A stretch of 64,000 nucleotides of DNA from Escherichia phage a51. The stretch is from sequence record OQ067376.1; one strand, given 5' to 3'. The notes under the pieces were generated by a model that was not told the DNA's origin, did no database searches, and saw nothing but the letters and a program-made list of their open reading frames with translations. The position numbers and the translations under genes are program-made. Below, one piece after another: positions 57,099 through 58,738 of the stretch. Numbering within the stretch: position 1 is the stretch's first letter; every line of letters begins with the position of its first letter.

Positions 57099-57878
57099 TT
57101 AATTAAAAATATATACTTCATCAGTTCCATTCTTTTCTTTGGAATGATATATGTTAAAGACGTATTTTTTATTAAGATGCTTAACATTATATTTTTTAGA
57201 CCATTCTTTAAGAAGAGTGTTTTCCTTTCCGTGATGCTCTAAAACATTCGACAGTCCAAATTTTATTCCTCTGTCATTTAAAGAATCTAAAAGATTTAAA
57301 AGGTCTTTTTCTTCTTCTTCTGACCAAAATTTATTATAATCAGCAACTGTTATAAGATATGGAGGGTCCACATATACAAAATCGCCGTCTAGAATTTTGA
57401 CATCTTTAAAATGCAATGAACTAAAGATTATTTTATCACAATTTTGTTTAAAGTGATTAAAGCGTTTTTCACTATTTTTGTTTATAGTTCTTTTTCCAAA
57501 CGGAGTAGTAAAATTTCCTTTATCGTTTATACGAATCATATTACTAAACCCGTGAAAATGAAGAACATAAAGTAAAAGAGGATCTCTAGTTTTATTATAA
57601 TCTTCACGTAATTTCAAAAACTCTTCTTTTGATGTTTTTGATAGTTTGTATTGCTTTATTACTTTTAAAACGTCATCCCATGATACATTAATAAGACGCT
57701 TATACATTTCAATAATTGGTTCTTGAATATCATTGGCCAATACAGGACCATTGACGTTCAAAGACACTGATAAACCTCCACAAAATAAATCCACGAATCT
57801 GTCATATTTTGGAAAGTGAGGCTTAAGTTCAGGTAATAATGATTGTTTATTACCTGTATACGCGATAGCTCCTAGCAT
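57099..57878 (-). CDS. dam: DNA adenine methyltransferase
   Basis: 259 aa with DPPY catalytic motif. Confidence 0.9.
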
Positions 57879-58438
57879 TATATTCTCTCATTTATTGCAG
57901 CAAAAAACGAATTATATAATTCTTCATCATATGTATTTGATAGTAATACTAACACGTTTTGTGATTTAGCATATTCATTAAACCTTGCTTGGATGGTTGG
58001 ATTATCAGTAAATGATTCTCTTTTTGTCCATTTATTACGTGGATAATATCCGCATGGCAAAAAATCTAATATCATCAATGACACAGGGTTTTCAGTTTTT
58101 GTGTATTCTTTTAATTTCTCTTTATCTTCTAAATATATTCCAACCGAATCAATAGCTGTACCTCCACCAACTTGGTGTTTAATTTCAATTATATGCTTTT
58201 TACCGTTGCGAGAAATAACAATATCAAATCTTCTAGTACGCTTCTTAGTTATAAAATTAGAACAAAACAAATTATTTGATTTTTCAGTATCATCGGTTAA
58301 AACCATTTTTTCTTGATAACTAACTGAACAATCAGTGAAATATTCTTTTACTTTATTAAGTATGAAATTTTCAACTACGGCAGATATTTTATATGAATCT
58401 CCGTTTAAAGCCATTTCATGCACAATTTTATTAATCAT
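57878..58438 (-). CDS. hypothetical protein with PD-(D/E)xK nuclease-like motif (186 aa)
   Basis: Motif ...[21 protein letters not shown]... (D, then E-x-K 13 residues later); shares stop/start junction with dam. Confidence 0.5.
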
Positions 58439-58460
58439 TATATCATCCTCAGCAATTTAT

Positions 58461-58493
58461 TTTATAATACCATAACAAGCTGAGAAAGTAAAC
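58461..58493 (-). promoter_or_regulatory. T4 early-type promoter
   Basis: gtaaac 58488-58493 (plus); tttataatacca -10 region. Confidence 0.5.
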
Positions 58494-58537
58494 AAATTTA
58501 TGAAATTTGTGATAAATATTAATTTAAAGGAGGACAT

Positions 58538-58738
58538 ATGGCACAAAAATTAATGGCACTTGTTAATGCCATCAAAGGTAATAAGAAACGTATAGCTTTT
58601 ACTATTTCTGCTATGGTAGGAATTTTACTCTGGAACTTTATTTTATCACCAATTGCAATTGCGCATGGTGTTAATATTCCAGTAGTTACTCTTGATACAT
58701 TCGTAGATCTAGCATTTGCTTTAGTTGGGTTAATTTAA
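58538..58738 (+). CDS. small two-helix membrane protein (66 aa) on the plus strand
   Basis: Strong ribosome-binding site aaggagga four nt upstream of ATG; convergent with gene 61 and overlapping its stop by 4 nt. Confidence 0.45.
   Translation: MAQKLMALVNAIKGNKKRIAFTISAMVGILLWNFILSPIAIAHGVNIPVVTLDTFVDLAFALVGLI

Follow-up and report, generated by a model that had tools for sequence, protein, structure and literature searches.

We analysed a stretch of 64,000 nucleotides from Escherichia phage a51 (sequence record OQ067376.1; hereafter the window) in which an open reading frame of 186 codons, ORF186, lies directly upstream of dam, a gene encoding a Dam-family GATC N6-adenine methyltransferase. 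We propose that ORF186 and dam together make up a two-gene restriction-modification-like cassette of T4-like phages, a reading to which we assign a probability of roughly 55%. The pairing of nuclease and Dam is itself well supported, and no description of it turned up in the literature searched. The reading is carried directly by the fold of the ORF186 product, its invariant catalytic residues, purifying selection on the gene, its strict and mobile linkage to Dam, and its deletion from T4; that the product cuts DNA, that it does so at GATC and depending on methylation, and what it acts on biologically are inferred. The minus-strand gene order is 61 (primase), ORF186, dam and 56; dam occupies the same map position as in T4, and its product of 259 amino acids (aa) is near-identical to T4 Dam. 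Between ORF186 and gene 61 lies a small membrane-protein gene, ORF66, on the plus strand, and an earlier note, made from the DNA letters alone, had put forward methyltransferase, nuclease and membrane protein as worth testing for one modification-linked or anti-defence module. That proposal survives in part: the nuclease is tied to dam by linkage in three contexts, but the membrane-protein gene is not. The evidence speaks neither for nor against an anti-defence role.

The strongest argument for functional coupling of the restriction-modification type is that ORF186 and dam, in a comparison of their neighbourhoods, behave as a mobile two-gene unit. All seven divergent ORF186 homologues examined lie directly upstream of a gene for a PF02086 Dam, abutting or overlapping it (0-35 nt). 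The cassette has at least three genome contexts: between genes 61 and 56 in Tequatrovirus; away from that site, with denB and ndd as neighbours on either side, in Klebsiella phage KPV15 (Jiaodavirus), where a homologue with 43-44% identity overlaps the start of the Dam gene; and upstream of a rIIA homologue on contig L017. Metagenomic homologues with 50-63% identity either occupy the 61-to-dam position or lie on contigs too short to extend beyond the pair. Even the homologues furthest from ORF186, two in number (29-32% identity in the family alignment, 38-39% in local alignment), each overlap a PF02086 methylase gene, and one of these pairs is the one followed by the rIIA homologue. Over seven pairs, methylase identity (50-72%) tracks nuclease identity (34-63%), with the nuclease as the faster-evolving partner, and no ORF186 homologue without Dam was found among the homologues examined and in the metagenome scans. 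Type II restriction-modification systems are recognised by a nuclease gene that adjoins a methyltransferase gene and is inherited with it, and this is the arrangement found in seven of seven cases.

The earlier note had read a D...E-I-K arrangement in ORF186 as nuclease-like and had suggested structure prediction and a check of residue conservation; both agree with it. The AlphaFold2 (AF2) model, built with eight sequences (predicted local distance difference test, pLDDT, 81.7; predicted template modelling score, pTM, 0.79), has the alpha-beta-beta-beta-alpha-beta core that defines the PD-(D/E)XK superfamily. D72 is placed on strand 66-77 and E85 and K87 on strand 80-88, adjacent strands as expected, and the family conserves both signature elements, an acidic residue in core strand two and the (D/E)-x-K motif in strand three. 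Among nine homologues (29-63% identity) the invariant residues are E23, D72, E85, K87, H88, Q89, G93-S98 and D125. Loop 91-100, invariant in sequence and modelled with low confidence, is a putative DNA-contact segment that may serve as a specific DNA-reading element. The ratio of nonsynonymous to synonymous substitution rates (dN/dS) is 0.17-0.36 in distant pairs, with synonymous sites near saturation; judged by these values, ORF186 is under purifying selection. Foldseek searches with the model against the PDB and viral models returned only generic PD-(D/E)XK nucleases with modest TM-scores. Membership of the predicted fold in the superfamily is therefore secure, whereas assignment to the restriction-enzyme subclass is only suggested by the model. 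Among the type II enzymes matched were BstEII, BsaWI, BsoBI, PfoI, NgoMIV, Bse634I, PspGI, AgeI and EcoRI, all of which we take to leave 5' overhangs.

Profile searches, also proposed in the earlier note, did return restriction-enzyme families, but every match was weak or sub-threshold. When nine members of the family were scanned singly, DpnII was the commonest Pfam family (4/9, best E 8.3e-5); BanI was another sub-threshold Pfam match of ORF186. The PADLOC profile REase_II (PDLC03548) matched ORF186 with E 9e-5 and three of the nine members overall, with a best E of 5.3e-6. The DpnII and REase_II matches both fall on the catalytic core of ORF186. The pair resembles DpnII/MboI-type systems in that its methylase likewise belongs to the Dam family (PF02086), the two genes are adjacent, and the nuclease has a PD-(D/E)XK core, on which the DpnII match lies; GATC is the known target of T2 and T4 Dam. 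It differs from those systems in having no second methylase gene beside it, in being carried by a virulent phage with hypermodified cytosine, and in placing the nuclease gene first, overlapping the methylase start.

The family itself is tiny: all its known members come from T4-like phages, and none of the searched databases gives it a name. In PHROGs, ORF186 belongs to family 8706, to which no function is assigned, and the database names of its homologues are all either 'hypothetical' or evident mis-transfers. The homologue in T2 and GADU22, for example, is named 'head outer capsid protein', a probable annotation error without profile support. An hmmsearch of 1.84 billion representative proteins yielded 12 family matches; the three long ones with the weakest scores are explained by repeats or chance. 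No ORF186 relative came out of a pattern scan covering 185,579 genomes of bacteria and archaea or of a tblastn search of plasmids (E up to 10), and scans of IMG/VR and JGI metagenomes added no new genome context for the family. On the methylase side, the closest plasmid relatives of the phage Dam (37-43% identity) are from Firmicutes. In nine plasmid neighbourhoods of Dam homologues the accompanying genes were for enzymes of the AlwI or FokI type or for a second methylase, or were open reading frames without a name; in five of them the homologue is the methylase domain of a type IIS system whose nuclease is FokI-like or of the AlwI family. On a Selenomonas plasmid, a hypothetical gene that precedes a Dam gene proved unrelated to ORF186.

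Comparison of the dam-61 interval across T-even genomes, as the earlier note had recommended, shows how the cassette has decayed. In T4, only 309 bp separate dam from 61. Aligned to the window by blastn, T4 gives two blocks, 57804-57965 and 58506-58799, with 8 nt common to both; since these coincide with two identical copies of TTTGTGAT, T4 is without 548 bp. Read from this junction, T4 has lost ORF186 through a 548-bp deletion between 8-bp TTTGTGAT repeats. The deletion took the putative promoter of ORF186 (the early-type promoter-like site), its ribosome-binding site and ~158 codons, and T4 retains upstream of dam a frameshifted 3' remnant that corresponds to the last ~20 codons. T2 and phage 107 have a full-length allele of 181 aa with the same C-terminal frameshift as the T4 remnant. 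The window phage and T2 thus differ from T4 in keeping an intact nuclease gene upstream of Dam, where T4 has only the 5'-truncated, frameshifted remnant. Other shortened or frameshifted alleles are found in KarlGJung (61 aa), G29 (142 aa) and ES19 (183 aa), and ORF186 is kept in about 163-178 of 735 related phage records. A count of deletion versus intact junctions in IMG/VR met with too few contigs. Orphan methylases usually arise when the nuclease is lost and its methylase kept. A 1988 paper on T2 dam reportedly describes an insertion of ~536 bp 5' of T2 dam relative to T4. The earlier note knew of neither ORF186 nor ORF66 at this position in T4; this holds for the first, of which T4 has the frameshifted remnant only, but not for the second, which is intact there.

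We propose the following mechanism. ORF186 would be a PD-(D/E)XK endonuclease of only 186 aa, similar in kind to type II restriction enzymes and transcribed from an early promoter of its own, and Dam would be translated off the same message through the TAATG in which the ORF186 stop and the dam start overlap. This junction, as the earlier note had described it, is present in the window and may bring about translational coupling. The nuclease would most likely cut duplex DNA at or near GATC if the adenine is unmethylated, and phage DNA would be exempt through Dam methylation and glucosyl-hydroxymethylcytosine. GATC is suggested as the target by the family to which the methylase belongs, by the weak DpnII matches and by a fold resembling that of restriction enzymes. 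As hypermodified cytosine would already shield the genome, the nuclease would be dispensable and prone to repeated decay; in T4, deletion of 548 bp between the two repeats would have produced the familiar 'orphan' Dam. There is a viral parallel in the chloroviruses, lytic viruses in which a site-specific nuclease and a protecting adenine methylase (CviAI and M.CviAI, both specific for GATC) occur together and in which such nucleases are reported to be used on unmethylated host DNA. The enterobacterial hosts of the ORF186 phages are Dam-methylated, so the target must differ.

Several points weigh against the proposal. The Pfam DpnII match of ORF186 (PF04556) reaches 16.8 bits (E 0.0045), below the gathering threshold of 23 bits, and aligns only positions 152-235 of the 278-position profile, to residues 28-113; the equivalent of the first ~150 profile positions, present in DpnII/MboI-type enzymes, is lacking. 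No restriction-enzyme relatives of ORF186 were found in the hmmsearch of 1.84 billion representatives, a PDB sequence search at E up to 10 returned nothing, and literature searches yielded no mention of ORF186 or, for that matter, of ORF66. At 186 aa, ORF186 is close in length to the 200-residue MunI chain, and its ExK-H-Q and G-x-A-I-(D/E) motifs, compared by eye and unscored with an EcoRI sequence checked against the PDB, recall E111-A-K-H-Q and G-N-A-I-E-R. This resemblance was not confirmed by hhalign, which gave the ORF186 family alignment a probability of 0.2% against EcoRI; there is no detectable sequence relationship with EcoRI or MunI, and MunI was not within the Foldseek top 50 for the ORF186 model. 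Furthermore, E. coli, Yersinia and Klebsiella hosts are presumably Dam-positive, so that the chromosome of the host would escape a GATC enzyme sensitive to methylation, and the target is thereby placed in doubt. Finally, a nuclease gene that comes first and is accompanied by no control gene would be a dangerous arrangement in a classical cellular system.

In a different explanation, ORF186 is a selfish nuclease that, in mixed infections, makes homing-like cuts in cassette-free relatives, repair then copying in ORF186 and dam, with Dam as a passenger or self-immunity factor. Elements of this sort have a hotspot between genes 61 and 56 (segF lies by gene 56 in T4, and Yersinia phage fPS-2 has a homing endonuclease at the place of dam), the presence of ORF186 varies among near-identical phages, and the cassette is found at three genomic sites. 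Free-standing homing endonucleases of the Seg/Mob kind share with ORF186 the same hyperplastic early region and the same presence/absence polymorphism. They have a different catalytic fold, however: ORF186 lacks a GIY-YIG or HNH motif and any Pfam homing-endonuclease match, and none of nine family members gave a GIY-YIG or HNH match in Pfam at E up to 1. A homing enzyme is also normally tied to one target locus, whereas the constant partner of ORF186 is Dam. Moreover, what commonly varies in Tequatrovirus is not a gain: ORF186 has been deleted and dam kept. On this balance we regard a selfish nuclease as unlikely, while still the most credible of the alternatives.

Next in credibility, and also unlikely, is a nuclease whose job has nothing to do with methylation, such as non-specific degradation of cytosine-containing DNA or a role in repair or recombination, and which merely shares an operon with dam. 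Several early nucleases directed at the DNA of the host are already encoded by T4-like phages. Simple co-transcription does not explain an overlapping pair in three unrelated neighbourhoods, down to 29% identity, nor does such a role account for the failure to find an ORF186 homologue without Dam; the invariant, poorly modelled loop after ExK also looks like a specific DNA-reading element.

Two further readings keep the coupling to Dam and change the target. The first, which is doubtful and which we place after both of the above, holds that the cassette is an inter-phage weapon: ORF186 would cut GATC free of N6-methyladenine even in hydroxymethylcytosine DNA, Dam would confer self-immunity, and the victims, on the same doubtful footing, would be co-infecting T-even relatives without Dam. 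It would explain why Dam persists in T4 now that the nuclease is gone, why the two genes travel together from one phage genome to another, and why GATC is the most avoided 4-bp palindrome, most strongly so in a stretch of Mosigvirus JK42 that shows no dam gene. Against a second-order Markov expectation, no other 4-bp palindrome in the window is as depleted as GATC (87 observed versus 219 expected, ratio 0.40); the ratio is 0.13 in a 50-kb stretch of JK42 (positions 1-50000, in which no dam gene is shown), 0.25 in KPV15 and 0.08-0.36 in metagenomic relatives. As the depletion extends to cassette-free JK42 it is general and not diagnostic, and we set GATC avoidance aside as a test of ORF186 specificity because depletion is equal or stronger in cassette-free relatives.

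The second of these readings makes ORF186 a DpnI/MutH-like enzyme, one that would attack cytosine DNA, for instance the Dam-methylated chromosome of the host, by cutting or nicking it at G-m6A-TC or hemimethylated GATC; the target would be made or completed by phage Dam, and glucosyl-hydroxymethylcytosine would protect the phage. This would account for the linkage to Dam equally well and would supply the obvious target in Dam-positive hosts that the classical reading is missing. ORF186 has no profile match to the DpnI or MutH/Sau3AI families, however, and its model has no extra methyl-reading domain, and we consider an enzyme of this kind quite improbable. The restriction-modification-like cassette of ORF186 and dam remains the preferred reading.

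ORF66 and ORF186 both lie where the earlier note placed them; they are conserved across phages and, on that comparison, are real genes and more than chance open reading frames. The comparison also indicates that ORF66 is not part of a module with dam and ORF186, and is instead an unrelated conserved gene, likely late. Concerted action of methyltransferase, nuclease and small membrane protein is very improbable: the three genes are adjacent in the window and have divergent promoters in a 99-bp spacer, but ORF66 accompanies gene 61 without dam and ORF186 in JK42, is kept in T4 (dam only) and in fPS-2 (a homing endonuclease in place of dam), has a late-type motif where ORF186 has an early-type one, and has no homologue next to the cassette of KPV15 or L017, for which reason the three-gene module is rejected.

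Homologues of ORF66 with ~45-55% amino-acid identity occur in other phages (dN/dS 0.18-0.45, synonymous sites near saturation), and tblastn found the gene in 692 phage records. It stays tail-to-tail with the 3' end of gene 61, including in phages without dam, ORF186 or both. T4 has an intact 66-codon homologue (NC_000866, 17738-17938, plus strand) that carries the same promoter-like motif and ribosome-binding site and has no gene annotation there. In JK42, ORF66 lies between 61 and 56 with neither dam nor ORF186; further homologues are found in the unannotated record of Gaprivervirus TH40 and in two metagenomic phages. In fPS-2 an annotated homing endonuclease replaces ORF186 and dam between ORF66 and gene 56, and the interval from ORF66 to 56 therefore reads, in this comparison, as a swap site for mobile nuclease genes.

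The conserved residues of the ORF66 product are W32-N33, P38, G44 and P48, with H or Q at position 43. Hydropathy and the AF2 model (pLDDT 70) indicate a basic amphipathic N-terminal helix (2-14), then one long helix of hydrophobic character (16-42) and, towards the C-terminus, a short helix (52-63) with two Asp residues. The two-helix membrane protein foreseen in the earlier note is thus partly upheld: helix 16-42 is of membrane length, whereas helices 2-14 and 52-63 are basic amphipathic and short and acidic, respectively. ORF66 has no Pfam or NCBIfam match, and so no holin profile, and PHROG 2024, to which it belongs, has no assigned function. The name 'Holin' given to a homologue (OE5505) was discarded because there is no holin-family profile match. 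In T6, ORF66 is named 'putative head morphogenesis protein', which looks like an annotation error without profile support. Our best guess, from the gene and its upstream signals, is that ORF66 encodes a late-expressed inner-membrane protein.

Table 1. Features of the dam-61 interval, with positions in the window.
Feature	Position	Strand	Basis or remark
dam, GATC N6-adenine methyltransferase, Dam family	57099-57878	-	TIGR00571 E 1e-69; RefSeq annotation
TAATG stop/start overlap of ORF186 and dam	57876-57880	-	Sequence; ORF186 TAA shares one base with dam ATG
ORF186	57878-58438	-	186 aa; proposed endonuclease partner of Dam; PHROG 8706
Left copy of 8-bp direct repeat TTTGTGAT	57958-57965	.	T4 blastn junction, window sequence
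Catalytic and putative recognition core, residues 67-98	58145-58240	-	Translation, alignment, model
H88-Q89, then G93-T-A-I-D-S98 loop of ORF186	within 58145-58240	-	Invariant in alignment
K87 codon	58178-58180	-	D...E-I-K arrangement of ORF186
E85 codon	58184-58186	-	D...E-I-K arrangement of ORF186
D72 codon	58223-58225	-	D...E-I-K arrangement of ORF186
E23 codon, invariant acidic residue	58370-58372	-	Alignment; helix 15-33 (first long) in model
GAGGA ribosome-binding site of ORF186	58446-58450	-	Sequence, consensus match only; 7 nt before ATG
Sigma-70/T4-early-type promoter-like site, (G)TTTAC-N17-TG-TATTAT	58464-58493	-	Promoter scan, consensus match only
Right copy of 8-bp direct repeat TTTGTGAT	58506-58513	.	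Overlaps late-promoter motif of ORF66
Late-promoter-like GATAAATA, 7/8 of TATAAATA, upstream of ORF66	58511-58518	+	Sequence; annotated promoter in Lutter
AAGGAGG ribosome-binding site of ORF66	58527-58533	+	Sequence; four bases before ATG; kept in all homologues
ORF66	58538-58738	+	66 aa small membrane protein; PHROG 2024
Terminator-like hairpin, 11-bp stem, 4-nt loop, U-run	58550-58575	-	Scan; -12.4 kcal/mol, z -1.7
Gene 61 (DNA primase)	58735-59763	-	3' end overlaps ORF66 3' end by 4 bases

Over the 3.3 kb around ORF186 and ORF66, the window shares 100% identity with Yersinia phage vB_YepM_ZN18, a member of Tequatrovirus, and 95-99% with hundreds of T4-like phages. By the RefSeq record of ZN18, ORF66 is the only plus-strand coding sequence from about 32377 to 64000 of the window (~31.6 kb), so that the lone plus-strand gene in a 27-kb minus-strand run, as the earlier note described it, holds, the run being if anything longer. 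Its description as convergent is correct with respect to gene 61, by virtue of the overlapping 3' ends, but not with respect to ORF186: the two genes are divergent, with start codons facing each other 99 bp apart.

The signals in and around this spacer are listed in Table 1. In phage Lutter, a depositor-annotated promoter overlaps the start of ORF186. On the other strand, the strong ribosome-binding site and late-promoter-like motif that the earlier note assigned to the membrane-protein gene are both in place (AAGGAGG and GATAAATA). The sequence nATAAATA (or TAAATA) and AGGAGG are found at a fixed distance upstream of ORF66 in seven divergent loci whose flanks are unalignable, and a perfect TATAAATA precedes the homologue in one of the loci compared (L009); recurrence of the motif at a fixed distance despite unalignable flanks supports late transcription. 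The terminator-like hairpin is downstream of gene 61 on the early strand, inside the 5' end of ORF66, and fPS-2 has an annotated terminator at the equivalent place. The same sequence would also fold just after the start codon in ORF66 mRNA. An Rfam scan of 56000-60000 found no known RNA. Elsewhere in the window, a minus-strand open reading frame of 66 aa (56320-56520; MARLNKRQLKK...) lies in the region 56100-56520, where T4 has segF (between soc and gene 56); its RefSeq name, 'virion structural protein', looks like a doubtful transferred name.

One consequence holds irrespective of the cassette: the T4 reference annotation omits a conserved, likely late membrane-protein gene, ORF66. Dam of T4 and T2 is the classic phage 'orphan' methyltransferase and is usually read as protection from host restriction. 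If ORF186 is the nuclease partner, it would represent a new, very small restriction-enzyme-like family, and a virulent phage with hypermodified DNA would carry a site-specific nuclease of its own. This would raise the question of its targets in Dam-positive hosts, which might be competing phages, plasmids or undermethylated DNA. T-even Dam would then have begun as half of a restriction-modification-like cassette that persists in about a fifth of the sequenced relatives, and of which T4 would be the degenerate state.

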